This document shows positions 3,001-61,589 of a stretch of 64,000 nt of DNA, piece after piece; positions within the stretch are counted from its first letter, which is position 1, and each line of letters starts with the position of its first letter. The stretch is taken from the IMG/VR virus record IMGVR_UViG_3300042363_000209; one strand, given 5' to 3'. This stretch comes from a virus. Lineage: Duplodnaviria; Heunggongvirae; Uroviricota; Caudoviricetes. Below the pieces are notes generated by a model that was given only the letters and a program-made list of their open reading frames with translations, had not been told where the DNA came from and made no database searches. Both the position numbers and the translations under genes were made by a program.

Positions 3001-5868
3001 ACTAATGGTACATCTGGATCTTCTGGATCTAGTGGTGTGAATGTTGGTTCTAGTGCTGTTATTATTGCTGGTACAGGGACTGCTTCATCTGTTAGATGTG
3101 GTGCTTCAAACACTGCTTCAGGAAATTGTAGTTCTGTATTAGGTGGTGCTGGTAACACAGGTGATTTTGCATATTCATTTATTGGTGGTGGTTGTCAAAA
3201 CCATGCTTCAGGTAACTTCCATGGAACTATTGTTAATGGACAAGGTAACTGTACTAATGCAAATTATAATTTTATAGGTAATGGATTAAATAACGTAGCC
3301 TCAGGTACACAATATAATACAGTTGTAAATGGAGCATCTAACACTGCAAGTGGAGATTATGCTTTTATAGGAAATGGTTTTGGTAATAGTGCTGCTGGAC
3401 AATGTTCATTTGTTGGAAGTGGAACTTTTAATGGAGCTAATGGAACATCTGGTGTGGTAGTTGGTGGTCAAAATAACTCTGCTAATGGATCATTTTCAGC
3501 AGTATTAGGAGGTTGTGGTAATACTGCAATGGGAGCATATTCTGGTGTATTTGGATGTGGTTTATCAAACAGTTTATCATGTTCATTCATGGCTAACTGC
3601 TTTGTACAACCTAATTTAAGTAATGCAATGATAGGTGGATGTGCTGTATGTGCAGGACCTTTGGGTGAGCTTATTGCTTACACTGCTTCAAGTGGAGGTG
3701 GTGTAATGGTTGCTGGTAGTGCTCCTGGTTCAATTCAAGGTAATGGATTTTCTAACACAGCAAGTGGATATTGTTCTAGTGCTTTAAGTGGTACTACCAA
3801 TGCTAGTTCTAGCAACGGATCAGTTATTACTGGTGGTGGATTCAACAGTAACTCTGGAATGTATTCATTCATTGGAGGAGGTTTCTTTAACAATGTAATT
3901 TCTGCAAGCTGTTCAGTTATTAGTGGTGGTAATAACAACTGTGTTTGTTCATCTAGTTCAACAATATCTGGTGGTGTATTTAACAAAATATTATCAAGTA
4001 CAAACTGTTCTACAATTAGTGGTGGTGCATGTAATATTATTTGTACTAATTCTGCTGGTAATTTAATTGCTGGTGGTAAGTCTAACACTGTTAGTAGTTA
4101 TGCCAGCTGTAATGTAATTGGAGGCGGTGATATCAACATGATTGGAACAGGTTCAACACATGGTGTAATTGCTGGTGGTACTTTTCATAATATTGGTAAT
4201 TACTCAGGTAACAATGTTATATCTGGAGGATTTATGAATAACATTGGCAGTAATGGTACTAGTGGTACTATATCTGGAGGAAGCATGAATACTATTAGTG
4301 GATATGTAACTGGTGCAACTATAACTGGAGGACAGGGTAATTTTGCTACTGCAAACTATTCAACTGTATCTGGATGTGGTTTAATGAATTCATTAGCATG
4401 TACACACATGGTTAATGATTTAGCAATCACTTCATTTGCTCCATACGTTGGAATGGGTTGTAGTATAAGCTTTGATGGCTTTGGTAAATTATGTTTAACT
4501 GCTGGTGGTGGTGGTGGATCAAGCATTATGGTACTAGGAATGGGAGCTGGTTCTACAGAAAGATGTGGTAACTTTAACACGACAGGAGGTACTAACTCTG
4601 GAGCGTTAAGTGGTTTCTTTAACAATGCAGGTGGAAGTTCGTCAGTAATTGCTGGTGGTGAAGCAAATAACAATAGTGCAGCTTGTTCATTTATTGGAGG
4701 TGGATTTAATAATTTTACGGCTAGTAGTTATCCTTTTAATAATATTGGGATGACAATTGGTGGTGGTGTTAATAATAAAGTGTGCGTTAGTTATGGAACA
4801 ATAGGTGGAGGATGTTGTAATACTATTGGAGCTTCAGGAAGTTCAGGGTTTTCTACTATTGGTGGTGGAAAGCTTAATAATGCAAATGGAGATTATTCAA
4901 CAGTTAGTGGTGGATATTCTAACAGTGCTTCAGCTTACTTTACCTTTATTGGTGGTGGACGATCCAATGGAGCATTTGCTGAAGGTGCTGCAGTTGCTAG
5001 TGGTTTTTATAATAACGCTATGAGCTGCCGTTCTTTTGTTGGTGGTGGTGAAATGAATATGGCTAGTGCATGTAGTTCTGCTATTATAGGAGGTACTATG
5101 AATAATGCAGGTGGTAATTGTTCAGTTATTGTAGGAGGTTCTGGTAACACGACTAGCAGTGCATATTATGCTAGCTTCCCTAGTTATGGTTTCATTGGAG
5201 GTGGACAAACCAATTGTAATTATGGTGGTTGGGGTTTCATTGGAGGTGGTAGTAACAATACTATAGCTGGAGGTAATATGTTTAGTAGTAGTATGAAGTC
5301 AGGTATTCTTGCTGGATATCAAAACTATGTAAGTTCAGAAATGAGTGGTATTCTTGCTGGACAATCTAACAACGCAATGGCTGCAGCTTCTGCTGTTACT
5401 GGTGGTTGTTTCAACATGAGTATGGGAATAGGAAGTGTTGTAAGTGGATGTCAGATAATGTCAACAGACTCATTTGTAAATCATGCTAGTTGTTTCAAGG
5501 CTGCTAATTTAAATCCAGGAGGTGCAATTTGTGCAAATGCTACTGGAATGATTGTTTTAAATACATCTGATGCTAGATTAAAGTGTTGCATTCAACCTGT
5601 TGGATATCAGCTTTGTGATGTTAGCAAATTAGTTCCTTCATTCTATGAATTCAATAGTGCTAATAAAGCTAATGGAGAAGGAAAACAAGTAGGATTCATT
5701 GCTCAACAAGTTAAAGACGTAGTACCTGAATCAGTAAAAATGACCTTTAGTGGATACTACTCATTTGATTCATCAAAACTAATACCTATTTTAACCAAGG
5801 GTGTGCAAATTTTGATATCTTGTGTAGATTCATTAACTTTACAGTTAGAAGAATTAAGAAATAAATAA
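1..5868 (+). CDS. Collagen-like tail fiber/receptor-binding protein, 5'-partial. Frame 1 is open from base 1 with no stop before the GTG at 280. It has two Gly-X-Y tracts (mostly G-T-S/G-T-T triplets) around a ~170-aa globular insert, a long Cys-rich glycine beta-roll repeat region, and a C-terminal intramolecular chaperone/auto-processing (S74-like) domain.
   Basis: Translation from nt 1 gives SGTSGSSGSSGTSAIDG..., so the ORF extends upstream of the window. There are hundreds of uninterrupted GXY triplets. Residues ~926-1740 carry repeats of the form GGxxNxASGxxSxIGGG (YadA-head/beta-roll-like). The C-terminus ...KQVGFIAQQVKDVVPESVK... matches the conserved motif of endosialidase/T5 L-shaped-fiber C-terminal chaperone domains. 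Confidence 0.8.
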   Translation, partial: SGTSGSSGSSGTSAIDGTSGTSGTSGTSGADGSNGTSGSSGTSGETGDQFATTSTTSFTLGSNGAIVVGTQLAYTVAQSIVIAYDINNFQECEVVSYNPATGGLIFGTPTRTVGSGTYTSWIVNLDGASGGDGSSGTSGTTGTSGSSGTSGSSGTAGTTGTSGTSGTTGTSGSSGTSAIDGTSGTSGTTGTSGTAGTSGTSAIDGTSGTTGTSGTSGTTGTSGTSGSSGTSATNGTGGTSGSSGTSGTSGIDGTSGSSGTTGTSGTSGSSATSGTSGSTGTSGTSGTSGSSGTAGTTGTSGTSAIDGTSGTSGTTGTSGSGGTSGTSGTTGIDGTNGTSGTTGTSGTSGSTGTSGTSGTSGVDGTSGTSGTSGTSGTSAIDGTSGTSGTTGTSGTSGTSGTNGTGGTSGTSGSTGTSGSSGTTGTSGSSGTSGSSGSSGTNGTGGTSGTTGTSGSSGTNGTGGTSGTSGSSGTTGTSGSSGTSGTTGTSGSTGTSGTSGTTGTSGSSGTSGTSGTSGTAGTSGINGISGGLVYYLNQSLNTNTAFGTPTYKQFSSTATGGAEQTVVTNIAADTRTLIATFATDSGVPNITNIPSGLWAFVTHLSIDTNRNVAVDVELYKYTTGGVSTLLGTTNIDTESMSNGVIKEFFTDLFLPQTTLNATDRLYCQIYVEFTGGGANHNITFYTEGTSNYSYAQTTFNAPSGTSGTTGTSGTDGSSGTSGTSGTSGTTGTSGSTGTSGSSGTTGTSGSSGTSGSSATSGTTGTSGSSGTNGTGGTSGTSGTSGSSGTNGTGGTSGTSGTTGTSGTTGTSGTSATSGTSGTTGTSGSSGVSGSNGTSGTSATSGTSATNGTGGTSGTTGTSGSSGSSGTNGTGGTSGTNGTGGTSGTTGTSGTSGINGTSGTTGTSGTSGINGTSGTTGTSGTSGVNGSNGTSGTTGTSGSSGTAGTSGINGTSGTTGTSGTTGTSGTSGSSGINGTSGTAGTTGTSGTSGAAGSPGAPGTNGTSGSSGSSGVNVGSSAVIIAGTGTASSVRCGASNTASGNCSSVLGGAGNTGDFAYSFIGGGCQNHASGNFHGTIVNGQGNCTNANYNFIGNGLNNVASGTQYNTVVNGASNTASGDYAFIGNGFGNSAAGQCSFVGSGTFNGANGTSGVVVGGQNNSANGSFSAVLGGCGNTAMGAYSGVFGCGLSNSLSCSFMANCFVQPNLSNAMIGGCAVCAGPLGELIAYTASSGGGVMVAGSAPGSIQGNGFSNTASGYCSSALSGTTNASSSNGSVITGGGFNSNSGMYSFIGGGFFNNVISASCSVISGGNNNCVCSSSSTISGGVFNKILSSTNCSTISGGACNIICTNSAGNLIAGGKSNTVSSYASCNVIGGGDINMIGTGSTHGVIAGGTFHNIGNYSGNNVISGGFMNNIGSNGTSGTISGGSMNTISGYVTGATITGGQGNFATANYSTVSGCGLMNSLACTHMVNDLAITSFAPYVGMGCSISFDGFGKLCLTAGGGGGSSIMVLGMGAGSTERCGNFNTTGGTNSGALSGFFNNAGGSSSVIAGGEANNNSAACSFIGGGFNNFTASSYPFNNIGMTIGGGVNNKVCVSYGTIGGGCCNTIGASGSSGFSTIGGGKLNNANGDYSTVSGGYSNSASAYFTFIGGGRSNGAFAEGAAVASGFYNNAMSCRSFVGGGEMNMASACSSAIIGGTMNNAGGNCSVIVGGSGNTTSSAYYASFPSYGFIGGGQTNCNYGGWGFIGGGSNNTIAGGNMFSSSMKSGILAGYQNYVSSEMSGILAGQSNNAMAAASAVTGGCFNMSMGIGSVVSGCQIMSTDSFVNHASCFKAANLNPGGAICANATGMIVLNTSDARLKCCIQPVGYQLCDVSKLVPSFYEFNSANKANGEGKQVGFIAQQVKDVVPESVKMTFSGYYSFDSSKLIPILTKGVQILISCVDSLTLQLEELRNK

Positions 5869-5897
5869 TTTAAAAAACAAAAATAAAAAATAAAGTT

Positions 5898-6242
5898 ATG
5901 TTAGTAGCTAAAATTAGTCCAAGTGCATCTTTCTCTGAAAAAGATGAGAACCCATTCAGTTCTGCAACAGTTGCATCATTTGATCACTTAGGAGTGATTG
6001 GTGTAAACTATATTCCAGGAAATGAAAAACATGAGTTTGTAGTTGTTTATGGCAACATCAAAAATGTAAATGATGTAGATTATTTACAGAGAGCTCCTCA
6101 ACGTACACAACTTGTGTTAACTGCTGCAGAAGTAGCTAACTGGGGTACAAACGATGAAGAGTTGTTTCAAATTGTTGCAGCTAAATTAGGAACATCTGTA
6201 GTGGAGTTCAAAGAAGTTAGCAATAACCTTAATGTATTGTAA
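5898..6242 (+). CDS. Hypothetical protein (114 aa), immediately downstream of the fiber gene
   Basis: Complete ORF with the same upstream context AAAATAAAGTTATG as the gene at 18928. No recognisable motif. Confidence 0.5.
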   Translation: MLVAKISPSASFSEKDENPFSSATVASFDHLGVIGVNYIPGNEKHEFVVVYGNIKNVNDVDYLQRAPQRTQLVLTAAEVANWGTNDEELFQIVAAKLGTSVVEFKEVSNNLNVL

Positions 6243-6269
6243 TATTAATTTAAGGTGAAGTAATAAAAA

Positions 6270-6297
6270 AAGCCCAGTTAATTCTGGGCTTTTTTGT
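6270..6297. terminator. Bidirectional rho-independent terminator between converging fiber (+) and decoration (-) operons
   Basis: Hairpin AGCCCAG-TTAATT-CTGGGCT preceded by an A-run and followed by TTTTTTG. Confidence 0.7.
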
Positions 6298-6301
6298 TTT
6301 A

Positions 6302-7123
6302 TTATTTACTATATCTAAATGTGTCATAGAACCATTTGTAATTGGTATAGATCCAATCTGTTACGTCCTTACCTAATAACTCTTTGGCTTTACTTCTTAC
6401 AGGTTCAAGTTTTGTACGAATAACGTGATCACCAAATGCACCGTACACTTCATCATCTTCTTTAGTTACTTGCTCAATGTGATCAAAGTCATGTTGATAA
6501 TATGTTAATCCTAGATATTCATATATCTTAATCATTGTAGTATCTGGATATAAACATAAGTCTTCAAACTTTACAAATAACATTTTGTTATTAATTCCTG
6601 TTCTAAATATCTCACTAAGTCTTTCAAGAGCAAGTCCTACAGGAGGTTGTGATGCCCATATGTCTATACGCTTAGGTACAGTGGTTCCTTGTCCTTTAGC
6701 CCAATCTAAAATATCAGATTGCTTCTCTGGATGTTTTCTAAAGTTACCTTCCATAGATGCAAATACATCACGTAAGTCTCTCACCATACAAATGATTTTT
6801 GGTTCTTCATTGTGTACAAACTGTAAGAAATCATAGTGTATGCCCCAACCTCTGCTTTTATCTATAACATATTTCTTATCTGTAATAGCATTGTAGAAAG
6901 CATCCATACCAGATTTAGCAAATGCTTGCCATCCTTTTTTCATAAGTTCAGCATCTTGAGCTTTAAACTCAGTAGAGTTAGTGTAATTAGCACGTGCTCC
7001 AAATATTAATTCAAGTACACCAGACGTAGGTGTAGCATATATATCAGGGTTCTGTGCAAGAATGTTTTGTAACAATGTAGATCCTGACCTAGGTAAAGAA
7101 CTTTGATAGAATATTTTTTCCAT
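6302..7123 (-). CDS. Sulfotransferase-family protein (PAPS-dependent)
   Basis: N-terminal 5'-PSB-like P-loop (SSLPRSGSTLLQNIL), size 273 aa, and an adjacent APS-kinase-like gene. Confidence 0.6.
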   Translation of the reverse strand: MEKIFYQSSLPRSGSTLLQNILAQNPDIYATPTSGVLELIFGARANYTNSTEFKAQDAELMKKGWQAFAKSGMDAFYNAITDKKYVIDKSRGWGIHYDFLQFVHNEEPKIICMVRDLRDVFASMEGNFRKHPEKQSDILDWAKGQGTTVPKRIDIWASQPPVGLALERLSEIFRTGINNKMLFVKFEDLCLYPDTTMIKIYEYLGLTYYQHDFDHIEQVTKEDDEVYGAFGDHVIRTKLEPVRSKAKELLGKDVTDWIYTNYKWFYDTFRYSK

Positions 7124-8372: not shown

Positions 8373-8794
8373 ATACGCTTGATTTTATCTAAACTGTCTT
8401 CAATAGAAGTGTTAGAAGTGTTAATAATTAAATCTACATTATCCATGTGAGGAACTTCAAAGTCTTTCACTTTAAAGTCATCTCTACCTCTATCTTCTTC
8501 ATAGATGAGATATATCCATTTGACATCTCTAGTTAGTTTATTAAGATGTTCTCTAGCTTCTTCATAAGGATACACTAGTGATAACACTATGTTATAGTTT
8601 TTAGCTTTATTTAAATAGTGTGCTATATCACTGGCTCTGTTTAAGTTCTTAATCCTACCTTCTCTACTGTAGTCTTTATTCTTAAACATATCTCTTAATT
8701 CATCACCATCTATGTGATGAAATCCCTCTGCTATAAATTTTTTAGCAAGGGTTGTTTTACCTGATGCAGGTTGACCAAATAATACTATTATCAT
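8357..8794 (-). CDS. Adenylylsulfate (APS) kinase-like P-loop kinase
   Basis: Walker A VLFGQPASGKTTLAKK, followed by IDGDELRDMF...SREGRIKNLNRASDIAHYL. This parallels CysC LDGDNVRHGL...EDRAENIRRVGEVAKLF. Confidence 0.6.
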   Translation of the reverse strand: MIIVLFGQPASGKTTLAKKFIAEGFHHIDGDELRDMFKNKDYSREGRIKNLNRASDIAHYLNKAKNYNIVLSLVYPYEEAREHLNKLTRDVKWIYLIYEEDRGRDDFKVKDFEVPHMDNVDLIINTSNTSIEDSLDKIKRICRIF

Positions 8795-11700
8795 AGTAAG
8801 TGTTTTATTTTATTAATTACTGTTTCTGCAGATATACCTTTATGACATTCAAATTGTCTGTCAGTTCCTTTATGTACAGGACACCAATCCCAATCACCTT
8901 TGTCAAACTTAAAGTTAGGATTGTTCCAACAACCATGACATAAGTTTGTATCTGTAATTCTTAAACAATTAGATTGAAACTCATGATCTGCTTCTGTAAA
9001 GTTACTAATCATTACAGTTTGCTTACCCATCATCCAAGCTAACCAGCTCAGTCCTGAGCTTAATCCTATAAAGAACTTACTATTCCAGATCATATTGATA
9101 GTGTTATCCATAGAAGTATCTTCTATCTGTGTACAGTTATCAAATGGATTTTTTTCTTTAGATACATTGTACACCTTGTATCCATGATCAACTAGATAGT
9201 TAATCAAAGCCTGCCAACCTTGCTTGGTCCAGAACTTACATCCTGATGTACTGTTTGTAGCAATAGTTACAAATGTATCTTTACCACTAAATTTAACTGG
9301 TTCATAAGCAAATCTAGGTCTAATCTCTTTCCATTCTAATCCTAGTATGTTAGTAGCTGCTTTCTGTAAAGGAATAGTGTTACACAACACAGGTTCTTTA
9401 TCTTTACCGTATCTCCAGCCAACAATGTACTGACCATGAATATTACCCACTACACTTCCTGGAGTGATAAACTCAAGCTCTGGATACGCTTTCTCAAACA
9501 AGAAATTCTTATATGTGCTCACTACAACATGACAGTTGTGTTTCTTTCTGAATTCATTGCAATACGGTATCCAGGCAATAGTATCACCTAATGATTGACT
9601 ATCTATACAGATGTATACACGCTTACCTTCATAGTTTAACGTTTCTTCAAAGATGAGTTCTCCATCTTCCCATACCATAGCTGTCCACTTGGTAAACCAT
9701 TGTCTATTTAACTTAACCCAACGGTTGCTAGTAATTGTATTTTCATAATGGCAAACCCCTTTCTCATCAAAGAATTTGATTAAGAAGTTACTATCACTGT
9801 TTCCTGTAATTTCTAAGGTGGGACTCTCTACAAATAACAAAGATATATTCACCTTTGTTTTCTTCTTTTTTCTAGGAACAATGGGTATATCAAGTGTTTT
9901 GTTATACAAGTGTAAATGATTTTGTGCAAATCTGTTATCTGGTATGTCATGAAAAACAACACCAACAGGATATTTTTCATTCACTTCATCTAAATCACTA
10001 TCTATAGGTAGGATGTATCTAGTAAACATATCTTCATACTGAGGAAGATTTCTAGCTACTACAGGAAGTGCATAGCTGATCGCTTCTCTAAGTACAAGAG
10101 GATTACATTCCCATGTGCTGTTAAACATGAATATGTCTGCAGCTTTTAAGAATATATCTACATCATTTCTCTCTCCCCATATCTTTACATTCTTTGGTAA
10201 GTTTTCCATCAACGGTTCCCAGTAGTCTTTAAAGTTGGGGGCTTGATTACCTACAAAATGGAAGTCCATACTAGGATATTTTCTAGCTATCTCTATTCCT
10301 TCTTTCTGATTCTTTCCTGGAGTCCACAGTCCTACGTTTACAACATTAGGTCTGTTCAGATTAAATCCTAACTCATCTTTAGCATCCACTTTATGTACAA
10401 TACTTGGTCTCTTATCTTCTATAGGGAATTCAATTACATCTTTATAAGCCTTCATGTTAGCAAATGTCTTATAATGATATGGTGTACAGAAAGCATAAGC
10501 TTCTGGTTCATACTTCTTAAGTTCGTCAGGATTAAACCAAACGTTATGACATGTCTCAACTATTCTCCAGGTTCTATCAGGAGCATACAATGCATCTAAT
10601 AACTGAGGGCTTATTTGATTAAAACTCTCAAACCCTTCTAACATTTCTTCTACATGTACAACATCAATGCTATTCTTTTTGATGATGTCAATGAGCTCCA
10701 TCTTGTTTTCTCCTAGTGTAAACATCCTGTTTTCAGGCAATAGCTTTTTGATTTCATTCTTCTGTACAACATACACAGGACTGAAGTCAGAGTACTCCAC
10801 TACATAAATTCGTACGAAATGTTGTAGTTCTTGCACTCTTTTTAGGAGGAAACCAGGCATACCACCTGTAGATAAGTGAGGAGCTAAGAACAATACACTT
10901 AGTTGTTTCTCTGCACTCTCTAGAGTTTGTATCATCTTATTCATCACCTTTGGATCTTTCTCTCCATGTAAGAATAATAACTTATGTTTATTATCTGGTA
11001 ATCTTGACCAGCTTCCGTGGTGCTTCCCCCACTCAAGCTTATCGTAGATGTCTTCTATTCTATCTAGGCTAGCATTGGTGTAGATGTAAGGTAGGCCATC
11101 TAACACTCCCCACTTCCACAATAACACGTTAGCTATTGTTTCTTCATGGTATGGAGCATACCACTCATGGTTAGCCATCACTTTAGGATGAGTACACATC
11201 CAGTACCACTCATCTAAGAAATCAAAGCAGTAATGGTTGGCTACAAAATAACCTGTTTGTCTATATCTCTGTCTAACATATTGATTGACACCAAACAATT
11301 CACATGCTGGTGCTTCTAATGTTGTAGACATATCTTCTCTAGTATCAGCCCCACCTCTACCATTGATGTGTAGATAGTCATAAATACCCTCTACAAAATA
11401 GGGATAGTTCATTTTAGGATACATATCAAAGATGCTATCAACATATTCTGTGGCTACACTATCAGAGTCTATATAAGCTACTGTATGAGCACAGTTTAAT
11501 AGAGCATCTTTAACAATCATTGGACGTTCTATCAACAGTCTATAAACATTCTTATCACTTCTATCAATGTATTTGTTGATAGAAAGCTTTGGTAGATTAG
11601 ACTTCCACATAATTGTTGTAGCACCAGGAATATCTGCAATAGTATCTAATAAATATACGTAGATGGGAAGCTCGCTATATCTTCTTATAGAAGCTACACA

Positions 11701-12288
11701 AGCTTTAACGGTAGGAACATAAGATGCATTTGCATATAAAACGTACGCTTTTTCAGCTTTTATATGCTTATTCGTATAATACCCATACAAATGATTACTG
11801 TAAAGTTCAACTAGCTGGGGGTATCTAGTCTTCATTACCCTGTGAGTTAGGTCTTCCTGGAGATGGGTTTCGTATGTATTACCATACTCTTCACCATCTT
11901 GAGCCATCATATATGGTACAGCCACTAAACATTCTTTGCCTGCATCTGTTATATCTGTAATAAGCTTCTGACCTTCTTCAGCTGTAAGATGTTCTAGTAT
12001 ATCTCCTAGGATGATGTAGTCATATTCTGACCAGTCAAACTCACGGATGTCTGCATTGTGTACTGTTCCGTACCAATCTTTCAGTTTGAATTCTTCAATG
12101 TAAGGGGCCCAAGCTTCAACAGCATCTATATCATAACCAATATCTTCTAAAAGCTTAGCATAAGTACCCTGTCCAGGACCAACATCTAATATCTTTTTAT
12201 GTGTAGGAACATGATGTTCAAAGTATTTCTTAATCTCAGGTTTGTAAAAAGTATAACTATTTGGCATAATGCTGGTTATTTTGAACAA
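8791..12288 (-). CDS. Giant multidomain decoration enzyme (1165 aa). N-terminal class-I SAM methyltransferase, followed by GT-A (GT8-like DxD), GT-B (GT4-like) and a C-terminal GT9-like domain.
   Basis: Four domain signatures in order: SAM motif I ILDVGPGQGTYAKLL; a DxD motif, AYIDSDSV; a GT-B region, FMFNSTWECNPLVLREAISYALPVVARN; and a C-terminal CHGCWNNP... segment with GT9-like layout. Confidence 0.55.
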   Translation of the reverse strand: MFKITSIMPNSYTFYKPEIKKYFEHHVPTHKKILDVGPGQGTYAKLLEDIGYDIDAVEAWAPYIEEFKLKDWYGTVHNADIREFDWSEYDYIILGDILEHLTAEEGQKLITDITDAGKECLVAVPYMMAQDGEEYGNTYETHLQEDLTHRVMKTRYPQLVELYSNHLYGYYTNKHIKAEKAYVLYANASYVPTVKACVASIRRYSELPIYVYLLDTIADIPGATTIMWKSNLPKLSINKYIDRSDKNVYRLLIERPMIVKDALLNCAHTVAYIDSDSVATEYVDSIFDMYPKMNYPYFVEGIYDYLHINGRGGADTREDMSTTLEAPACELFGVNQYVRQRYRQTGYFVANHYCFDFLDEWYWMCTHPKVMANHEWYAPYHEETIANVLLWKWGVLDGLPYIYTNASLDRIEDIYDKLEWGKHHGSWSRLPDNKHKLLFLHGEKDPKVMNKMIQTLESAEKQLSVLFLAPHLSTGGMPGFLLKRVQELQHFVRIYVVEYSDFSPVYVVQKNEIKKLLPENRMFTLGENKMELIDIIKKNSIDVVHVEEMLEGFESFNQISPQLLDALYAPDRTWRIVETCHNVWFNPDELKKYEPEAYAFCTPYHYKTFANMKAYKDVIEFPIEDKRPSIVHKVDAKDELGFNLNRPNVVNVGLWTPGKNQKEGIEIARKYPSMDFHFVGNQAPNFKDYWEPLMENLPKNVKIWGERNDVDIFLKAADIFMFNSTWECNPLVLREAISYALPVVARNLPQYEDMFTRYILPIDSDLDEVNEKYPVGVVFHDIPDNRFAQNHLHLYNKTLDIPIVPRKKKKTKVNISLLFVESPTLEITGNSDSNFLIKFFDEKGVCHYENTITSNRWVKLNRQWFTKWTAMVWEDGELIFEETLNYEGKRVYICIDSQSLGDTIAWIPYCNEFRKKHNCHVVVSTYKNFLFEKAYPELEFITPGSVVGNIHGQYIVGWRYGKDKEPVLCNTIPLQKAATNILGLEWKEIRPRFAYEPVKFSGKDTFVTIATNSTSGCKFWTKQGWQALINYLVDHGYKVYNVSKEKNPFDNCTQIEDTSMDNTINMIWNSKFFIGLSSGLSWLAWMMGKQTVMISNFTEADHEFQSNCLRITDTNLCHGCWNNPNFKFDKGDWDWCPVHKGTDRQFECHKGISAETVINKIKHLL

Positions 12289-14161: not shown

Positions 14162-14323
14162 ATGAAAAAAATTATTGAACTTGTCAAAAGCCTTTTTGGT
14201 GAAGGCTCTTTTGCTAAAAAACTATTAACTATCAAAAGCTTAGAGAAAGAAGTTAAAGCTGTAGTTAATGGTTCTGAAGAGAAAATAGAAAAAGTTAACT
14301 ATAAAAAGAAAAAGAAAAAATGA
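14162..14323 (+). CDS. Small Lys-rich ORF (53 aa) below the ORF-track threshold
   Basis: An ATG..TGA ORF found by hand-translating the gap. Its stop overlaps the endolysin start (ATGA). Confidence 0.3.
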   Translation: MKKIIELVKSLFGEGSFAKKLLTIKSLEKEVKAVVNGSEEKIEKVNYKKKKKK

Positions 14324-14925
14324 ATTTAGATAAATTAAAAGGACACATTCCTGACACAGTGATTGCTCAAATCCCTGCTGTACAAGAGAAGTTTGAGATC
14401 AATACTCCTTTACGTTTAGCTCATTTCTTGGCTCAATGTGGACATGAATCTGGTGGCTTTAAAGCTGTTTCAGAGAACTTAAACTACGGTGCTGCTGGTT
14501 TACAGAGCATCTTTAAAAAATACTTTACTCCTGTGAGTGCTAAGGAATATGAACGCAAGCCTGAAAAGATTGCTAACATTGTTTACGCTAACCGTATGGG
14601 TAATGGTCCTCAAGCTAGTGGAGAAGGATACAAGTTTAGAGGACGTGGTTACATACAGTTAACTGGTAAAGATAACTACACAGCTTTTGATAAGGTGGTA
14701 GAAGATGATATATTAGTTAGTCCAGATCTTGTAGCTACAAAGTACCCACTTTTATCTGCAGCTTGGTTCTTCCATAAGAATGGATTACATAAGATTGCTG
14801 ATGAGGGGGCTACAGATGCTGTGGTTACTAAGGTGACTAAACGTGTTAATGGTGGAACAATTGGTCTACCAGATCGTATAAAACATTTCAACGAATACAA
14901 TAACCTATTAAACGGAAGTATATAA
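14320..14925 (+). CDS. Endolysin, glycoside hydrolase family 19-like (lysozyme/chitinase-type)
   Basis: LAHFLAQCGHESGGF matches the GH19 catalytic signature (AFLAQxSHETG). Confidence 0.65.
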   Translation: MNLDKLKGHIPDTVIAQIPAVQEKFEINTPLRLAHFLAQCGHESGGFKAVSENLNYGAAGLQSIFKKYFTPVSAKEYERKPEKIANIVYANRMGNGPQASGEGYKFRGRGYIQLTGKDNYTAFDKVVEDDILVSPDLVATKYPLLSAAWFFHKNGLHKIADEGATDAVVTKVTKRVNGGTIGLPDRIKHFNEYNNLLNGSI

Positions 14926-16268: not shown

Positions 16269-16397
16269 ATGGCAAAGGCTAAAGGAGGATCATCCTCACA
16301 AAAAGTAAATTTTGGAAAACGTAAAGGTGGCAAAGCTGCTAAATCACAAGGTCCAAAAGACAAACCAGTAAAGAAATATAAAGGTCAAGGTAAGTAG
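16269..16397 (+). CDS. Very basic small protein MAKAKGGSSSQKVNFGKRKGGKAAKSQGPKDKPVKKYKGQGK
   Basis: Uses the internal ATG of track ORF 16191..16397. Composition resembles the MATVKK array proteins. Confidence 0.35.
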   Translation: MAKAKGGSSSQKVNFGKRKGGKAAKSQGPKDKPVKKYKGQGK

Positions 16398-16545: not shown

Positions 16546-16701
16546 ATGGCAATACCAGCAAGGCCCATAGGGCAAGATCCAGTTTCACAACAATTGTGGA
16601 ACATCTCAAAACAAATGGAACAGTTGATTGGACAAGTTGGAGCTGTAGTTAAAAACACTGCAGGCTTAACTACCACAACTACCACTACAACAACCCCTTA
16701 A
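16546..16701 (+). CDS. Small ORF (51 aa) ending in a poly-Thr tail (TTTTTTTTTP)
   Basis: Hand-translated: MAIPARPIGQDPVSQQLWNISKQMEQLIGQVGAVVKNTAGLTTTTTTTTTP. Confidence 0.3.
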   Translation: MAIPARPIGQDPVSQQLWNISKQMEQLIGQVGAVVKNTAGLTTTTTTTTTP

Positions 16702-17975: not shown

Positions 17976-18176
17976 ATGGGAAGCAATCAAAATTTAAAAG
18001 CTTACGTCCGCTATGATGGTAGTGGTAGAGTAGTTGCAGGTAGTCTTATCTTTAGAAGAAAGAAACCTACAGTTGGAAGATGGCATGAAATCGCTATAAC
18101 AGAATGTTGTGAGTATGTGCCTACAACTAGTACAACTAGTACAACTAGTACTACAACTACAGCTATTCCAGAATAG
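17976..18176 (+). CDS. Small protein with C-terminal (TST)n tail
   Basis: Ends ...VPTTSTTSTTSTTTTAIPE, encoded by the ACAACTAGT tandem repeat at 18121..18160. Confidence 0.35.
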   Translation: MGSNQNLKAYVRYDGSGRVVAGSLIFRRKKPTVGRWHEIAITECCEYVPTTSTTSTTSTTTTAIPE

Positions 18177-18191
18177 TAAAAACCAAACAAC

Positions 18192-18596
18192 ATGGCAAAA
18201 TCATTGTTCCCTGATGAGATGATGAAATCAGGAGAATTAAACTTGGAAACAATAGCTGGGAAGCTTACGTATTTTCATGAGCAATTGCACTTAACTCATT
18301 GGCAAACAAAGAGTTATGCTGAGCACCAAGCTTTAGGAGGATTGTATGATTATGTACATGATTTCAAAGATGGTGTAATAGAGAAACTTATGGGCTATAC
18401 AGGCAAACGTCCTGCTCCATACAAGATAGAACCTCTTACAAATTGTACAGGAAACGAGTGTGTTTCAAATCTTTTATCTTTTGCATCTTCATTAAAAAGT
18501 TATGCTGAAGCAAACAGCTATCACGATATAGCTAATTTAGCTGATGCATTAAGCGGTGAAGCAGCTAAAACGAAATATCTATTAACTCTGTCTTAA
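18192..18596 (+). CDS. Hypothetical protein (134 aa)
   Basis: ORF. Stop overlaps the next start (TAATG). Confidence 0.45.
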   Translation: MAKSLFPDEMMKSGELNLETIAGKLTYFHEQLHLTHWQTKSYAEHQALGGLYDYVHDFKDGVIEKLMGYTGKRPAPYKIEPLTNCTGNECVSNLLSFASSLKSYAEANSYHDIANLADALSGEAAKTKYLLTLS

Positions 18597-18886
18597 TGCA
18601 GATAAACAAAAAATACTTCCCTAAGGTGATGCAAGATAATGAAATGATTTATTTTGCTCACCTAGAGGGAATAATTGACTCAATAGATGAACTATCTACT
18701 TTGGAGATAGTTAAAAATCCTCGCTCCTATCATTTTAGATTGGCTCCTAGTGTACCAAAATACACTGAGTCTCTTTTGCAGGAGCTATTGAAGTTTCATA
18801 ATATGTTTAAAATCAGACTAGAGTTATCTAAAAGTATTAAAAATTCATCTACTATTACGTTTGAAATAAATTTGGAAGATTCGTAA
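18596..18886 (+). CDS. Hypothetical protein (96 aa)
   Basis: ORF, coupled to the upstream gene. Confidence 0.4.
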   Translation: MQINKKYFPKVMQDNEMIYFAHLEGIIDSIDELSTLEIVKNPRSYHFRLAPSVPKYTESLLQELLKFHNMFKIRLELSKSIKNSSTITFEINLEDS

Positions 18887-18927: not shown

Positions 18928-19197
18928 ATGTCAGAAGAAATTCAAGAAGTTGGACAAGAAGCTCCAAAATTTGATCCTAATAAGAAATATACATGGGCTG
19001 GTGATGTTAGCATTGTAGTTTCTGGTGCAGAGTTTGGTGCAATTTTAAATGCTTTACGTGGTGTTACATCAACTCAAGAAGCACAAGCATTGTTCTTAGC
19101 TGCAGAAACTGCAGATAAAGTAGAAGCTATTTTAGCAAGAAATGTTGAAATTGGCATTATTGTAGAAGCTCCAGAAGTTCCTAAAGCAAGTTTATAA
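18928..19197 (+). CDS. Hypothetical protein (89 aa)
   Basis: ORF preceded by AAAATAAAGTTATG, the same leader as the gene at 5898. Confidence 0.45.
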   Translation: MSEEIQEVGQEAPKFDPNKKYTWAGDVSIVVSGAEFGAILNALRGVTSTQEAQALFLAAETADKVEAILARNVEIGIIVEAPEVPKASL

Positions 19198-19207
19198 ATA
19201 ATATATC

Positions 19208-19354
19208 ATGGCCACTGCTAAGAAAAATTGGATACAAGATGCTGTTAACCCTAAACATAAGGGTTATTGCACTCCAATGACTAAAGCTACATGCACTCCT
19301 AAAAGAAAAGCATTAGCTAAGACTTTCAAAGCGATGGCTAAGAAACGTAAATAA
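19208..19354 (+). CDS. MATAKK-family small basic protein, member 1 (48 aa)
   Basis: MATAKKNWIQDAVNPKHKGY...AMAKKRK. Stop overlaps the next ATG (TAATG). Below the track length cutoff. Confidence 0.45.
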   Translation: MATAKKNWIQDAVNPKHKGYCTPMTKATCTPKRKALAKTFKAMAKKRK

Positions 19355-19548
19355 TGGCAACTGTAAAAAAACCTACTCCTGTTCCAAATGGTCATCTAAT
19401 TAAAAAAGATGGTACATCATTAAAGAAAGGTGGCAAGATAGATGCTTTTAGTAAAGTTAAAAGAGCTATGAAGCCTAAGAAAGAAAAGATGTGGATGGAT
19501 AAGGTTAAGAAAGATATATTTAAAGTTAAACCTGTTAAAAAGAAATAA
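19354..19548 (+). CDS. MATVKK-family small basic protein, member 2
   Basis: MATVKKPTPV.... Lys-rich (about 30% K). Confidence 0.5.
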   Translation: MATVKKPTPVPNGHLIKKDGTSLKKGGKIDAFSKVKRAMKPKKEKMWMDKVKKDIFKVKPVKKK

Positions 19549-19850
19549 TGGCAACAGTTAAAAAGGTTATGAAATCTGGTGGGAGCACACCTGCTTGGAC
19601 TCGTTCTGAAGGGAAAGATCCAAAGGGTGGTCTTAATAGAAAAGGTGTAGCAAGCTATAGAGCTGCTAATCCAGGTTCTAAATTAAAGATGGCTGTCACA
19701 ACTAAACCTTCTAAACTTAAAGCTGGTTCTAAGGCTGCAGGTAGACGTAAATCTTTTTGTGCAAGAATGTCAGGAGTTAAAGGACCTGCAAAAAAACCTA
19801 ATGGTGAACCAACAAGGAAAACATTAGCATTAAGAAAATGGAATTGTTAA
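19548..19850 (+). CDS. MATVKK-family small basic protein, member 3
   Basis: MATVKKVMKSGGSTPAWTRSEGKDPKGG... Confidence 0.5.
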   Translation: MATVKKVMKSGGSTPAWTRSEGKDPKGGLNRKGVASYRAANPGSKLKMAVTTKPSKLKAGSKAAGRRKSFCARMSGVKGPAKKPNGEPTRKTLALRKWNC

Positions 19851-19862
19851 AACAATAATATT

Positions 19863-20246
19863 ATGGCAACAGCAAAGAAAGTAGCAAAAGCTCAAAGCGG
19901 TAAAGATGTCCCTAAAGGATATGTCCGTGGTGAAATGACTAATAGACTATACAAGAAAGAAGCAATGGATAAACATCAATCTGATATGGCTGATGCTTTA
20001 GACAGACAAGCTGGTCTTGGTAAATATGCTCCTAAGAAAAATCCTGCTATTAAAAACAATCCTCTTAAAGAAAAAGCTGTTCCTAAAAAGAAAATGAAAG
20101 CAGGTGGTATGTTAAAACGTGCTGATGGTTCTTATTCTCAAAGAGGACTTTGGGATAACATCAGAGCTGCTAAAGGATCTGGAAAGAAACCTACAGCACA
20201 AATGTTAAAACAAGAGAAAAAAATTAAAGCTAAATCTAAAAAATAA
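19863..20246 (+). CDS. MATAKK-family small basic protein, member 4
   Basis: MATAKKVAKAQSGKDVPKGY... C-terminal KMKAGGMLKR motif. Confidence 0.5.
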   Translation: MATAKKVAKAQSGKDVPKGYVRGEMTNRLYKKEAMDKHQSDMADALDRQAGLGKYAPKKNPAIKNNPLKEKAVPKKKMKAGGMLKRADGSYSQRGLWDNIRAAKGSGKKPTAQMLKQEKKIKAKSKK

Positions 20247-20251
20247 TTAAA

Positions 20252-20614
20252 ATGGCAACAGTTAAAAAGATGAAAAAAGCTCAAGATGGTATGGCTTTTA
20301 AAATGAAAAAAGATGCAAGAGAAGGTAAGGAAATGGTATCAAAAATAAAAGAAGCTAACAAAAAATCAGATTCAACTAATCGTAAAACAGGTATGAATTT
20401 TGACAAGAAAAGTTTTGATTCATTACCTAAATTACCAATGAAAAAATCTAAAGATGGTTCTTCTTTTGGTATGTTATCAGTAAAAGCTGGTGTTGACAAA
20501 AACCCTAATGCTACATTTGCAGATAAGATTGCAGGTGCTAAGAAAAAAGCTATGTCTGGTACATCTATGATGAAAAAAGGTGGTATGATTAAAAAATCTA
20601 TTAAAAAGAAATAA
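20252..20614 (+). CDS. MATVKK-family small basic protein, member 5
   Basis: MATVKKMKKAQDGMAF... C-terminal MMKKGGMIKK. Confidence 0.5.
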   Translation: MATVKKMKKAQDGMAFKMKKDAREGKEMVSKIKEANKKSDSTNRKTGMNFDKKSFDSLPKLPMKKSKDGSSFGMLSVKAGVDKNPNATFADKIAGAKKKAMSGTSMMKKGGMIKKSIKKK

Positions 20615-20615
20615 A

Positions 20616-21113
20616 ATGGCAACTGTTAAAAAAGCAAAAAAATATCAAGGCGGTGGTGATGTTCCTTCATGGGCTTCTAAAGTTAATAAACAGACAGAAG
20701 ATGAAAGAAAAAATCCTGCTTTAGGTGATGAAAGACGTAGAAAAGCAGATAGTACAGCAATGGCTAATTGGAAAAAAGCAGCTAACTTTGAACGTGCTTA
20801 CCATAAAAAAGAAGGAAACAAAATTGAAGATAGAAAAAGTGGTTCTACTGCATACACTGTTTTAGCTAAGAAAAAAGAAATGAAAACTGGTGGTGCTGTT
20901 AAAAAGTACAAATCTGGCGGTAGTCTATCTGGATTAAAAGCTTCTAACAAGCGTGTTGGTCCTGTAGATCCTAAAGGTGCTTACACCACAGTGCAAAAAA
21001 GAACACTAGCAGGTGCTAAAGGTAAAGCTGTTTTAAAGAAAGATAAACAATTAGGTGCTACTAAGATGAAAATGGGTGGTGCTATGAAAAAATGTAAGTA
21101 TGGCTGCAAGTAA
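20616..21113 (+). CDS. MATVKK-family small basic protein, member 6
   Basis: MATVKKAKKYQGGGDVPSW.... KMKMGGAMKKCKYG and KTGGAVKKYKSGG motifs. Confidence 0.5.
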   Translation: MATVKKAKKYQGGGDVPSWASKVNKQTEDERKNPALGDERRRKADSTAMANWKKAANFERAYHKKEGNKIEDRKSGSTAYTVLAKKKEMKTGGAVKKYKSGGSLSGLKASNKRVGPVDPKGAYTTVQKRTLAGAKGKAVLKKDKQLGATKMKMGGAMKKCKYGCK

Positions 21114-21273
21114 TATGACTGCTGGTAAAGCTAAGAAATCAGGTGCACCTCGTAAAGCACCAAAGGTACCAGCTCCTAAACCAATCAATGGTAATTATAT
21201 GAAGGAGTCTGATACAAAGTTACAAAGAAAGAGTCCTATGCTTCCTATGAAGCAGAAGAGACTTTCAAAATAA
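21100..21273 (+). CDS. MA..-start small basic protein, member 7 (57 aa, frame-shifted overlap with member 6)
   Basis: MAASNMTAGKAKKSGAPRKAPKVPAPKP... Could alternatively start at the ATG at 21115. Confidence 0.35.
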   Translation: MAASNMTAGKAKKSGAPRKAPKVPAPKPINGNYMKESDTKLQRKSPMLPMKQKRLSK

Positions 21274-21412
21274 AGAGTACTTCTCCTGCATCCCATAAGA
21301 ACTGCACGCTCAGGTTGTGGTAACCCATTCTAGACAGGGCCCCTTAAAGAAGTCATAAATTCCCCCCTTATAGTCTCAGTATTATAAGTCTGCTCCTTAT
21401 GGGAGTAAAAGA

Positions 21413-21437
21413 AAAGCCCCTATTTGGGGCTTTTTTC
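21413..21437. terminator. Bidirectional terminator at the convergence of the + block and the long - block
   Basis: AAAAGCCCCTATTTGGGGCTTTTTTC. GC hairpin flanked by A-run and T-run. Confidence 0.7.
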
Positions 21438-22151
21438 ATTTAGAAGAGTATGTAAATATCTCATAAAGCTTTTATGTCTTATATAATGATGTGTTACATG
21501 TTTATGTAAAAATGTAACATCTTCTTCTGTAAGGTCAGCTAGCATCTTAGGTACATAACTATCTCCTTCTTTCCAAAGGTCATTGAAATATCTTTGAAAT
21601 GGAAACCAGCCATTTAGATATAGTCTATGTAAAACATTTGAATCTAAAAACTTATCATAGATTTTTATCTGGTTCTCTTTTAACCATGTGCCTATACAAA
21701 CATCTTCATATCCATAACCTTTTACAGTCATAGGTTGACAATTTTTAATCAGTTGTGGAGATATAAAATAACCACATCCCCCTGATGGATAATCTAGTTC
21801 AGGTTCTTTTGTATAAGACCCTTTCATACTATATCCGTATACAGCAGTTTTACTAAAGAATGTAATCACTTCTTCAAATAAAGGAATGTTAAGTATTGCA
21901 TCATCATCAATGAAGACTAACCAATCATATGCATCAAGTTGGTCAGTAGTCCTAACCAGGTTAATGAAGTTGACTGTCTTCTCTTCATTGCTTTGATAAT
22001 CATCTTTGTCAGAACAAGATATCTCATTAGGTCTCCCTGTAAGTTTATCTGTAAGACATACATAATCAAGAGCAGATAACCACGTTTCAAGGCAGTTATC
22101 TACTCTGTCAGTATGTTTATGACTAGTTTTTAATACAATTTTGTATTTCAT
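21420..22151 (-). CDS. GT31/Fringe-like glycosyltransferase (beta-1,3-glycosyltransferase fold)
   Basis: DWLVFIDDDAIL (DDD motif) and YPSGGCGYFISPQLI (the GT31 'SGGAGYVLS' motif). Confidence 0.5.
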   Translation of the reverse strand: MKYKIVLKTSHKHTDRVDNCLETWLSALDYVCLTDKLTGRPNEISCSDKDDYQSNEEKTVNFINLVRTTDQLDAYDWLVFIDDDAILNIPLFEEVITFFSKTAVYGYSMKGSYTKEPELDYPSGGCGYFISPQLIKNCQPMTVKGYGYEDVCIGTWLKENQIKIYDKFLDSNVLHRLYLNGWFPFQRYFNDLWKEGDSYVPKMLADLTEEDVTFLHKHVTHHYIRHKSFMRYLHTLLNEKSPK

Positions 22152-47973: not shown

Positions 47974-47999
47974 GTTGTGTTTTTTAATTGTTAATGTTG

Positions 48000-48410
48000 T
48001 GGAGGTGAGGGGAGTTGAACCCCTGTCCAGACAAGTGATAATAATACCATTCTTACATGCTTAGATCTGAAGCTGTTCATGTACATTTACTTAGAGCAAT
48101 TACAATGTATTACTACATAGTCCTAAGCACTTCTAATCAGTAGTTGGGATCGCAGGGTTTGCTATCTACCACCACTCTATTTTGACATAATAGAGAAAAC
48201 GCTTGTAACTTTCTGTTTCCAGGTTGTTACCACCCAGTTGACTAAGCAGCTAATGCTAACTCAGAAGCGAAAGCCATAGCAATAATGCTAGCACCTTCTT
48301 CAACACGCTCAGATTGACTCTTTACGGTTATTGTTTAGAACTTGTTTACCTGTTCCAAGGCTTGCATGTGATACTACCAGCCTCATGTCTGTCAAAGCCA
48401 GTACACCCCC
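48000..48410 (-). ncRNA. ssrA: tmRNA (ssrA), phage-encoded, about 410 nt
   Basis: The minus-strand RNA starts GGGGGUGUACUGGCUUUGACAG... (tmRNA 5' acceptor/D-analogue). It contains a tag reading frame ...GCU UUC GCU UCU GAG UUA GCA UUA GCU GCU UAG (…AFASELALAA-stop). It ends ...GGACAGGGGUUCAACUCCCCUCACCUCCA (T-arm plus acceptor 3' strand complementary to the 5' GGGGGUG). Confidence 0.85.
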
Positions 48411-55715: not shown

Positions 55716-55993
55716 GTAAAAAGAACAACTACGAAAAAGCTCTTTATATACTACAAGAACTACATAAAGACTTTCCTACATACAATTTAGGAAGGCATCT
55801 TGCTACAGCTCTTAGTGATTATGGAGATATATGGGGGATGACAGACAAAGAATTAGTCTTTGCTTTGGAAAAATATAAGACAGAGATTGAAATGGACGTT
55901 CCACATACAGATGAGTCTGAGATTGATAAGATTATAAAAGAAGGTATGGACCTTGATAATATACTAAAAGAAGAAGAAGATGGCGACTATTAA
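55712..55993 (+). CDS. Hypothetical protein (93 aa)
   Basis: ORF. Confidence 0.35.
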   Translation: MSKKNNYEKALYILQELHKDFPTYNLGRHLATALSDYGDIWGMTDKELVFALEKYKTEIEMDVPHTDESEIDKIIKEGMDLDNILKEEEDGDY

Positions 55994-56312
55994 AAAAACT
56001 ACATATATAAACACAGAGCTTGAATGGGCAGAAGCACAGCTTGTTTCCTGGAAAGCTTATGTAAATGCAAACCCACTACATGAATTGAAAGATAGAATTG
56101 AGTGGAAGCCTACAGCTAAAGGAGGAATGTTACCTATGGTAATAGCTAGTATTGAAGCTCAGGGTAAGTTTGTACAGGAGACAATGAAGAACTACCTTGC
56201 TCTAGTAGAAGTGGTAGATAAGCTAAGAAACATGGAAGAAGCTAAGGTGGAAGTGAGAGGAAAGGGTGAGTTGTCAGGAGCTGCTGCTGAGTTTTTAGCA
56301 AATAGAAAATAA
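55980..56312 (+). CDS. Hypothetical protein; terminase small-subunit candidate by position
   Basis: 110-aa ORF immediately upstream of and coupled to the large terminase. No motif. Confidence 0.3.
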   Translation: MATIKKTTYINTELEWAEAQLVSWKAYVNANPLHELKDRIEWKPTAKGGMLPMVIASIEAQGKFVQETMKNYLALVEVVDKLRNMEEAKVEVRGKGELSGAAAEFLANRK

Positions 56313-61469: not shown

Positions 61470-61589
61470 AGTAAAAAATATTAATGCTATATTATCTTAA
61501 ATAATGATCTATATAGAGCTTCATCTCTTTGATATTAATTTACTATAGTATACTTTTACATTACAAAACCAATTAAAACTCAACTACAT

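Follow-up and report, generated by a model that had tools for sequence, protein, structure and literature searches.

In bacteriophage T4, the internal proteins (IPs) and the Alt protein have in common, at the N-terminus, a capsid-targeting sequence (CTS) of ~10 residues, and about 1370 copies are packaged in total (PMC7697877). Crassvirus heads contain a cargo zone with up to about 5 MDa of protein, which is thought to traverse the tail partly unfolded (PMC10172136). Polyvalent proteins of phages are likewise predicted to be packaged and injected (PMC5512222). Here we compare with these systems an array of seven open reading frames (ORFs) for small, highly basic proteins, p1 to p7, carried by the caudovirus record IMGVR_UViG_3300042363_000209, of which a stretch of 64,000 nucleotides (the window) was analysed. 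An earlier note on this DNA took the seven for a family of tandem paralogues. We find that duplication of a single gene does not account for this locus, which is instead a conserved and most likely late-expressed cassette in a crAss-like phage of marine origin. Judging from sequence comparison, the bodies of its proteins are distinct short conserved modules, connected through Gly-Gly linkers and a start tag that they share.

The layout given in the earlier note was borne out. Seven consecutive ORFs of 48, 64, 100, 127, 120, 165 and 57 amino acids (aa) lie on the + strand (Table 1), and six of the proteins, p7 aside, start with MAT(V/A)KK. Spacing is tight, with stops and starts that either overlap (TAATG) or lie 1–12 nt apart, and the near-identical junctions that had been noticed are indeed repeated across the array (AAATAATGGCAAC / TAAAATGGCAAC; repeat families D1, D2 and D6). 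The richness in lysine and arginine also held: these residues make up 26–34% of the array proteins, each of which has a net charge of +13 to +30. The start read for p7, MAASNM, is in turn probably an artefact, being the +1 frame of the conserved DNA that encodes the KCKYGCK-stop end of p6. Since relatives without the KCKYGCK tail start this protein with MT(A/S)GKAKK, the likely start is the ATG at 21115. The array genes are under purifying selection (pN/pS, the ratio of non-synonymous to synonymous changes, of 0.03–0.2 against one close relative), with values of 0.03 for p1 and 0.07 for p7, and of 0.04 for an acidic 89-aa gene just upstream. Because of this selection on the ORFs, the idea of a tandem DNA repeat artefact was dropped.

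The proposed paralogy did not withstand pairwise comparison. When the first six residues are cut, 19 of the 21 protein pairs fall to shuffle background in Smith-Waterman alignments (z ≤ 1.1), leaving p5–p6 (z 3.5) and, marginally, p2–p7 (z 2.6). Iterated jackhmmer profiles built from relatives cross-match at 12–16 bits, except for the p5 profile, which reaches p6 via chimeras. These weak matches apparently stem from chimeric proteins and linkers; as chimeric proteins confound the test, we read it qualitatively, and similarity beyond the tag and the linkers appears to be compositional. Two motifs put forward as common to the family have a narrower meaning. The N-terminal GG-DVP-W/Y motif is present in two to three of the seven proteins but is not general, and the KMKxGG motif is real but behaves as a linker at any position, not as a C-terminal signature.

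The relatives reveal instead a pool of at least ten mini-modules (A, B, B2, C, D, E, F, G, J, I and the KCKYGCK tail; module C is the Pfam domain DUF6321), and in those compared a K-rich xKxGG linker precedes every module. Module A, the body of p1, has 310 homologues at 75–97% identity, many of them standalone at 46–84 aa, and is fused behind other modules in four contigs (L009, L011, L013 and L027). The K-rich tail of p2 is replaced by module B2 in relatives, and in L008 module B is fused to DUF6321. DUF6321 itself has more than 8000 homologues, and module D, the C-terminus of p4, 1030 cluster representatives at E<1e-3. Module E, the ~55-aa C-half of p6 (GGSLSGLKASNKRVGPVDPKGAYTxVQKxTLAGAKGKAxLKKDKQLGATKM), is 80–96% identical in 1075 homologues whose N-halves differ completely, and protein P0015 is a chimera of the p5 N-half with module E of p6. 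Variants of module G occur in L013, L023, L024 and L028. In L022 and L023, modules D, E and C are standalone genes starting MAK.. or MKKKMQSGG, and L027 carries the fusions D-C and F-A. Among the modules that complete the pool, J has the pattern CWxGY...NC and F, seen in relatives, is EF-hand/dockerin-like, of a Ca-binding type. With modules fused, split or re-ordered from one relative to another, gene boundaries move freely.

Tandem duplication of one ancestral small basic gene, with divergence everywhere save at the N-terminus and in a few motifs, would explain why all seven genes are alike in orientation, tight spacing and composition and why six share the tag. It would also fit the p5/p6 score above composition and the sequence K(A/Y)QxGxDVPxxY that follows the tag in both p4 and p6, and the junction repeats, 20–58 nt long, could drive unequal crossing-over. 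Yet nearly all pairs are at background once the tag is cut, and every body has its own large, tight family, standalone or recombined in relatives. The bodies also occur in unrelated phages without the others, and the profile cross-matches are weak and seemingly borne by chimeras and linkers. We therefore regard this model as largely refuted and very improbable; the case teaches that a common start peptide and a similar composition can mimic tandem paralogy.

Table 1. Array genes, neighbouring genes and terminator (window coordinates)
Feature	Position	Strand	Description
Basic gene array, 7 ORFs	19208-21273	+	Head-to-tail ORFs; public gene callers give the same seven on metagenome contigs
p1, 48 aa	19208..19354	+	Tag MATAKK + module A (NWIQxAVNPKHKGYCTPMTKATCTPKRKALAKTFKAM; two conserved Cys; TPKRK motif)
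p2, 64 aa	19354..19548	+	Tag MATVKK + module B (PVPNGxLIKKxGxxLKxGG) + lineage-specific K-rich tail
p3, 100 aa	19548..19850	+	Tag MATVKK + linker VMKSGG + DUF6321 (two conserved Cys, C-terminal WNC)
p4, 127 aa	19863..20246	+	Tag MATAKK + module M (DVPKGYVRGEMTNRLYKKEAMDKH..) + linker KMKAGG + module D (MLKRADGSYSQRGLWDNIRAAKGSGKKPTAQMLKQEKKIKAK)
p5, 120 aa	20252..20614	+	Tag MATVKK + K-rich helical-looking N-half + module G (SSFGMLSVKAGVDKNPNATFADKIAGA) + linker MKKGG tail
p6, 165 aa	20616..21113	+	Tag MATVKK + YQGGGDVPSW + helical N-domain (residues 25-81) + two linkers + module E + KCKYGCK tail
p7, 52 aa from likely start; 57 aa from 21100	21115..21273	+	Module I (KAPKV..P..MKEsDTKLqRKSPMLPMKQKRLSK)
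DUF5856 (Dps/ferritin-like) gene	18192..18596	+	Pfam DUF5856, E 2.8e-14; PHROG 858 'starvation-inducible' / DNA-binding; first cassette gene in ~20 relatives
96-aa conserved gene	18596..18886	+	Second cassette gene; syntenic in all relatives, 53-99% identity
Acidic 89-aa gene, net charge about -7	18928..19197	+	Placed ahead of the array by tblastn wherever the flank of a relative is long enough, 27-99% identity
Endolysin gene	14320-14925	+	
GC-rich hairpin with A-run and T-run flanks	21412-21434	both	Bidirectional intrinsic terminator; scan match on - strand; hairpin in RNA fold

The linkers and the tag are the elements that the array proteins do have in common. The linker pattern [LMYFIV][KR]xGG occurs 7 times in the 681 aa of the array, compared with 0.28 times in composition shuffles (at most 3 in 2000 shuffles); among all window ORFs of at least 90 aa, a set that contains four array members, it is found 7 times in 17,897 aa. 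The tag, MA[TVAS][VIMATS]KK, is present on 87 of the 120 p6 homologues listed, whatever module follows. In its longer form, MAT(V/I)KK(x)KKAQxG, it is in effect an N-terminal version of the xKxGG linker. The capsid gene starts MAIQTI and carries no tag, so the tag is not simply the high-expression start of this phage.

DUF6321 links the array to other marine phages and to virion data. Protein p3 matches this Pfam family (PF19846) over profile positions 1–72 of 72 with 75.7 bits (E 4.7e-21; gathering threshold 28.5 bits). For the other six proteins Pfam gave no match at E up to 1, and PHROG matched p3 only. The domain is found in 537 phage records, among them T4-like cyanophages (several hundred of the records), T7-like cyanophages and pelagiphages, and Methylophilales phages, and the copy in this phage shares 45–67% identity with those in cyanobacterial, SAR11 and Methylophilales phages. 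In cyanomyoviruses it forms the C-terminus of the protein cluster T4-GC119, a mapping that we checked by the S-ShM2 coordinates and by the S-P4 and S-SM1 annotations. T4-GC119 was recorded as 'Structural protein, Y, 13' (13 peptide counts) in purified S-SM1 virions (Sullivan et al. 2010 Table S8, PMC3037559), and the S-SM1 protein (SSM1_115) has DUF6321 at its C-terminus (E 2.8e-22) together with a J-type module. In two T7-like phages the DUF6321 gene stands among head genes, between the scaffold and capsid genes in HTVC119P and between the capsid and tail-tube A genes in P-SCSP1d, and a DUF6321 member in BFVD is annotated 'Virion protein'. Syn5, for which virion proteomics exist, offers no test because the 18–46 kb part examined holds no DUF6321. 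We found no mention of DUF6321 in the literature searched.

Related charged proteins are seen elsewhere. Genes for long and highly charged proteins with J, D-like, 'KDACYHKVK..WPSAYASG..C' and DUF6321 segments follow a cytidylyltransferase-like gene in a marine virus known from a single cell (L001, Marine virus AG-345-E15; 1975–6498) and in cyanomyoviruses (L003, Sf-FS3; 1–4267). S-SM1 virions also yielded this cytidylyltransferase cluster, T4-GC190 (PMC3037559).

A second line of evidence comes from the partners of module D. Together with linkers, this module lies inside SLT lytic transglycosylase proteins (P0491 and P0420) and an ART-PolyVal ADP-ribosyltransferase (P0502), and array modules are also found inside virion-type proteins of 500–1400 aa. 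Contig L036 encodes an SLT protein that opens with module D and falls into the PHROG type 'internal virion protein with endolysin domain'; its gene comes just after those for the portal, a scaffold-like protein and the major capsid protein (MCP); the portal belongs to the same PHROG as that of the window. Several large module-D proteins start MxWLKKYKNGG, MGWLKKYQQGG or KKRYTYQTGG, which resembles MATVKKAKKYQGGG of p6. A module-D profile also matches proteins encoded one to two genes from the DUF6321 gene in a cyanomyovirus and in the pelagiphage Greip. As C and D are neighbours in three unrelated phage types, the two modules travel together.

The same cassette is present in ~20 related uncultured marine phage contigs of ~105–125 kb (from JGI, ENA, NCBI and IMG/VR), always in the order DUF5856 gene, 96-aa gene, acidic 89-aa gene, five to nine basic genes, p7-like last gene and convergent block; a p7-type gene is the final one in every relative that carries the cassette. 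The 96-aa gene has no match in Pfam or PHROG, and the acidic protein is a possible chaperone or partner of the polycations. The lineage recurs on many metagenome and IMG/VR contigs, Tara samples included, and a megablast search with the 17–23 kb region against the phage collection gave no match: the source is a marine crAss-like lineage without a close cultured relative in that collection. Its portal is P22-like, and its MCP is of the crassvirus type (PF23898, E 8e-27), as read on L034 (11324–12877), a metagenome contig that contains the scaffold-like gene of the window and reaches past the window end. The + strand encodes terminase, portal, an SPFH protein, an acidic scaffold-like protein, MCP, collagen-like fibres, endolysin and the cassette. 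The − strand encodes a RecA/UvsX-like protein, ribonucleotide reductase (RNR), rIIA/B, primase, helicases and DNA polymerase. Because the cassette shares its strand with the head, tail and endolysin genes and converges on the replication block, it is most likely expressed late. Shine-Dalgarno motifs are absent from all 61 genes, as would fit a host of Bacteroidota type; upstream regions are A-rich.

Structure predictions and searches give the modules few known counterparts. In the AlphaFold2 model of p6, residues 25–81 are helical, with confidence (pLDDT) of 76–84, and module E has no secondary structure at a pLDDT of ~55. A Foldseek search of this model against the PDB returned nothing, and the model of DUF6321 gave no fold match. 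Such strong conservation of module E, the best-conserved stretch of all, in the absence of a predicted autonomous fold suggests that it takes shape on a partner, for example DNA, RNA or a second protein. Searching PDB sequences with p3, p4 and p6 yielded nothing meaningful, an avidin match (E 0.0014) being a Gly/Ser-linker artefact, and tblastn of p6 against phages found no match, probably owing to low-complexity masking. In Pfam, the array has no match to ribosomal proteins (bS21 and others), HU/IHF or other known nucleic-acid binders. Ribosomal-protein mimicry was rejected, with no model or fold matches, as were double-glycine bacteriocin leaders and adenain sites, for which the register is wrong and no protease was recognised. 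The array proteins have neither a signal peptide nor a transmembrane segment.

The explanation that we tentatively favour is that the array encodes late, polycationic virion-internal proteins that are co-packaged with the genome and possibly injected; the indirect evidence from DUF6321 and module D points in the direction of the DNA-associated, co-packaged or ejected roles that the earlier note had considered. The basic genes are drawn from the pool of conserved mini-modules, strung together by Lys-rich [hydrophobic]-[K/R/Q]-x-G-G linkers, with the gene-opening module headed by the tag M-A-T-(V/I)-K-K. Their products would be made late and in large amounts and would enter the roomy crassvirus-type head together with the genome. 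There a net charge of roughly +140 per set could bind and partly neutralise the DNA, and at infection the proteins might leave the head with or ahead of it, which would make them functional analogues of T4 IPI-III, which likewise carry a short tag in common at the N-terminus. The sequences themselves show the layout of the locus, purifying selection, synteny, module shuffling and, for two modules, fusion partners and genomic surroundings, and the literature places one DUF6321 protein in virions; packaging, DNA binding, ejection and any targeting by the tag are what we infer for the seven. The Ca-binding type of module F and the Cys pairs in most modules would fit a virion (extracellular) phase better than the cytoplasm.

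Several observations weigh against this explanation. The virion evidence from S-SM1 covers module C only, within a 495-aa protein, and the peptides may lie elsewhere in that protein; virion proteomics of S-PM2 and Syn9 did not detect GC119. In Greip, the DUF6321 gene lies among small genes by the replication/recombination module, away from the head genes. No prohead protease or other processing enzyme was recognised in the ~74 kb examined. At the second codon of the tag, 33 of 37 cases (89%) use GCA, compared with 32% GCA genome-wide, so the conservation of the tag is at least partly at the mRNA level (translation start). A six-frame scan of the 64-kb window for the MAT(V/A)KK pattern gave one site outside the array, at 55980, where a non-basic gene of 110 aa (55980–56312, +), directly upstream of TerL, starts MATIKK; this gene has no Pfam match and may encode the small terminase. 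Finally, the conservation of modules that are predicted to be unstructured exceeds what simple charge neutralisation needs. Our literature search on small basic virion proteins of marine crAss-like phages found nothing relevant.

The codon bias and the gene at 55980 also feed a rival that concerns the targeting part of the model, not packaging: MAT(V/I)KK plus AAATAATGGCAAC could be an optimal Shine-Dalgarno-independent start and re-initiation signal in a Bacteroidota host that would allow coupled translation at a high level, with no role for the peptide. The general lack of Shine-Dalgarno motifs and the A-rich upstream regions agree with such a signal, the start ATGGCNAC is common to the gene at 55980 and to a − strand helicase gene (MATLQK) whose end lies at 40767, and standalone modules in relatives open differently, as described above. 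Yet usage at the tag's Thr and Lys codons is ordinary although the encoded amino acids are fixed, and position 4 keeps a hydrophobic residue (I/V/M/A). The capsid gene, which presumably has the highest expression, does without the tag, and the conserved continuation (xKKAQxG / KKYQxGG) is also internal in fusion proteins such as P0084. We thus consider it unlikely that the tag is a translation signal only. The alternative to packaging itself is that the modules act inside the cell without being packaged, binding a universal nucleic-acid target of host or phage (DNA of the nucleoid, the ribosome or its rRNA, mRNA, or phage DNA under replication) in host shutdown or in the organisation of phage DNA. 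The position of the gene in Greip and the silence of the Syn9 and S-PM2 proteomes agree with this, as does the Dps-like, DNA-binding-type gene that heads the cassette, and the extreme conservation of predicted-disordered modules (80–96% for E, 45–67% for DUF6321) suggests that they fold on a partner which is conserved and independent of virion architecture. But the genes sit in a late-oriented block and not with early or replication genes, purified S-SM1 virions contained a DUF6321 protein, SLT and ART-PolyVal proteins of the internal-virion type carry module D as a fusion, and the Pfam search returned no nucleic-acid binder. On balance, such intracellular effectors seem rather unlikely.

A related proposal combines injection with conserved host targets. 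The [hydrophobic]-[K/R/Q]-x-G-G linkers and the tag might be processing sites that release basic peptides of ~30–60 residues, which would be injected and each fold onto a universally conserved host target, e.g. ribosome, RNA polymerase or DNA; separate genes, fusions and SLT/ART tails would then all yield the same peptides. We hold this to be quite improbable. If true, it would explain the free gene boundaries and the conservation, up to 96%, of predicted-disordered modules, and also why phages that infect Bacteroidota, cyanobacteria, SAR11 and Methylophilales have DUF6321, D and J in common. A role outside the genome-bound state, as external capsid cement or decoration or as cationic lysis peptides acting on the outer membrane, appears extremely doubtful. 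There is a precedent in the 'disruptin' gp28 of phage PhiKT, a cationic peptide that replaces spanins; the array proteins are strongly cationic, and the same strand block holds endolysin and small membrane-protein genes. The earlier note had in fact set the array between the lysis genes and a block terminator. The terminator does follow the array, its hairpin ending both the + block and the convergent − block, but the placing by the lysis genes is loose, as the endolysin gene lies 4.3 kb and about ten genes upstream, with unrelated genes between. Nor do the proteins have a membrane-directing segment or the amphipathic cationic helix, encoded in a lysis cassette, that marks the disruptin type: the conserved modules are predicted to be non-helical, and they occur inside 500–1400-aa virion-type proteins and beside podovirus capsid genes.

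Other features of this genome deserve mention. Between the last basic gene and the terminator lies a non-coding stretch of 140 nt (21274–21411) that is unusually GC-rich for this genome and folds better than shuffles (−46.6 kcal/mol for a 171-nt fold, z −2.6); it has no Rfam match and could be a small RNA or a 3′ untranslated region element. The small basic ORF that the earlier note had likened to the array (16269–16397, +; 42 aa, MAKAKGGSSSQKVNFGKRKGGKAAKSQGPKDKPVKKYKGQGK) is real and conserved in relatives, where it ends ..KYKGQG(K/R) or ..YSGQGR (L005, L008, L015 and L020), but it stands outside the cassette, has no module in common with it and no match in Pfam. Two further small ORFs on the + strand (16546–16701 and 17976–18176) end in Thr/Ser runs (..TTTTTTTTTTP and ..PTTSTTSTTSTTTTAIPE) and flank a 338-aa gene of PHROG 4417. 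Glycosyltransferase-like genes lie near them (8791–12288, with a weak Fringe match at 21420–22151), and the products of the two ORFs may be glycosylation substrates.

For a crassvirus-type phage, this one nonetheless has rIIA/rIIB homologues, a RecA/UvsX-like gene, RNR and transfer-messenger RNA (tmRNA). The tmRNA gene (47997–48410, −) lies in the replication block, with the tag peptide VKSQSERVEEGASIIAMAFASELALAA according to ARAGORN and 88 bits to Rfam RF00023 (gathering threshold 47). Between the portal and scaffold-like genes is the SPFH/Band_7 gene (60939–61469, +; E 1.6e-26), and in the scaffold-like protein of 428 aa (61590–62876, +) the N-terminal third is extremely acidic and the C-half resembles a coiled coil; at this position (60939–62876) we recognised no prohead protease. 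From the window start, an ORF of more than 1860 aa (280–5868, +) encodes a collagen-like, Gly-rich tail-fibre protein with a GC fraction of 0.42 compared with 0.33 for the rest, and a second collagen-repeat fibre lies past the window end (L034, 18062–19924).

Packaged basic internal proteins that share a tag are already known from T4. We found no description, however, of mini-modules traded with Gly-Gly linkers or of gene fission and fusion at such linkers, of an occurrence in marine crAss-like phages, or of modules common to these, cyanophages and pelagiphages. Some of the most abundant phages in the ocean carry these modules again and again, yet none of the modules has a described function. 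Should they prove to be packaged, DNA-binding or injected, they would represent a shared, horizontally traded toolkit of marine phages for genome condensation or host takeover, and foreign cargo could be brought into crAss-like capsids by means of their tags and linkers. Under the same premise, the fission and fusion of mini-modules at conserved linkers would be a rarely documented mode of gene evolution.

Among eukaryotic viruses, adenoviruses condense their DNA with the protamine-like core proteins VII, V and mu, which adenain cuts at (M/I/L)XGG-X. They resemble what is proposed for the array proteins in being polycationic, DNA-associated components of a virion core, and the Gly-Gly of the cleavage site is superficially like that of the [LMYF][KR]xGG linkers. 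The register differs, with the hydrophobic residue at P5 here and at P4 in adenovirus, and the virus lineages are unrelated; we found no CE-clan protease and no sign of linker cleavage. The described crassvirus cargo is another parallel: PhiCrAss001, with gp45, gp46 and RNA polymerase subunits as cargo, has a capsid of the same family (Crass_capsid). That known cargo is largely helical and of 60–277 kDa, and small basic cargo is undescribed there; by analogy, small disordered proteins would traverse the tail easily. As to DUF6321/T4-GC119, p3 is a clear member of a family widespread in marine T4-like cyanophages, T7-like cyanophages and pelagiphages. In cyanomyoviruses the domain ends low-complexity proteins of 150–990 aa, whereas here it is a standalone gene of 100 aa with a lineage-specific tag and linker.

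The T4 IPI, IPII and IPIII are, like the array proteins, small and basic, encoded by neighbouring genes and provided with a common short N-terminal peptide on otherwise unrelated bodies. The likeness of the tags is one of analogy only, with no sequence similarity of the array to T4 IPs or to the CTS. T4 IPs are packaged with the DNA in hundreds of copies and injected (PMC7697877), which for the array proteins is proposed here. T4 also has a gp21-type prohead protease and an LxE/IxE cleavage motif, neither of which is seen here, and its IPs are lineage-restricted and fast-evolving, whereas the array bodies combine tiny modules through Gly-Gly linkers and are conserved in phages that infect different bacterial phyla. 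The T4 tag is found as well on the larger injected ADP-ribosyltransferase Alt, and in our case a similar K-rich ..GG N-terminus and modules are found on SLT and ART-PolyVal proteins. This leads to the polyvalent and podovirus internal virion proteins (T7 gp16-type SLT; Iyer et al. 2017), which share module D and the xKxGG linkers with the array. Such SLT and ART-PolyVal proteins are encoded after the head genes, and their packaging and injection are either predicted or known. Polyvalent proteins are recognised by two or more disparate, mostly enzymatic domains, and no enzymatic domain is present in any of the seven array proteins; at 48–165 aa, these are like the non-catalytic 'beads' of polyvalent proteins, encoded as separate genes.

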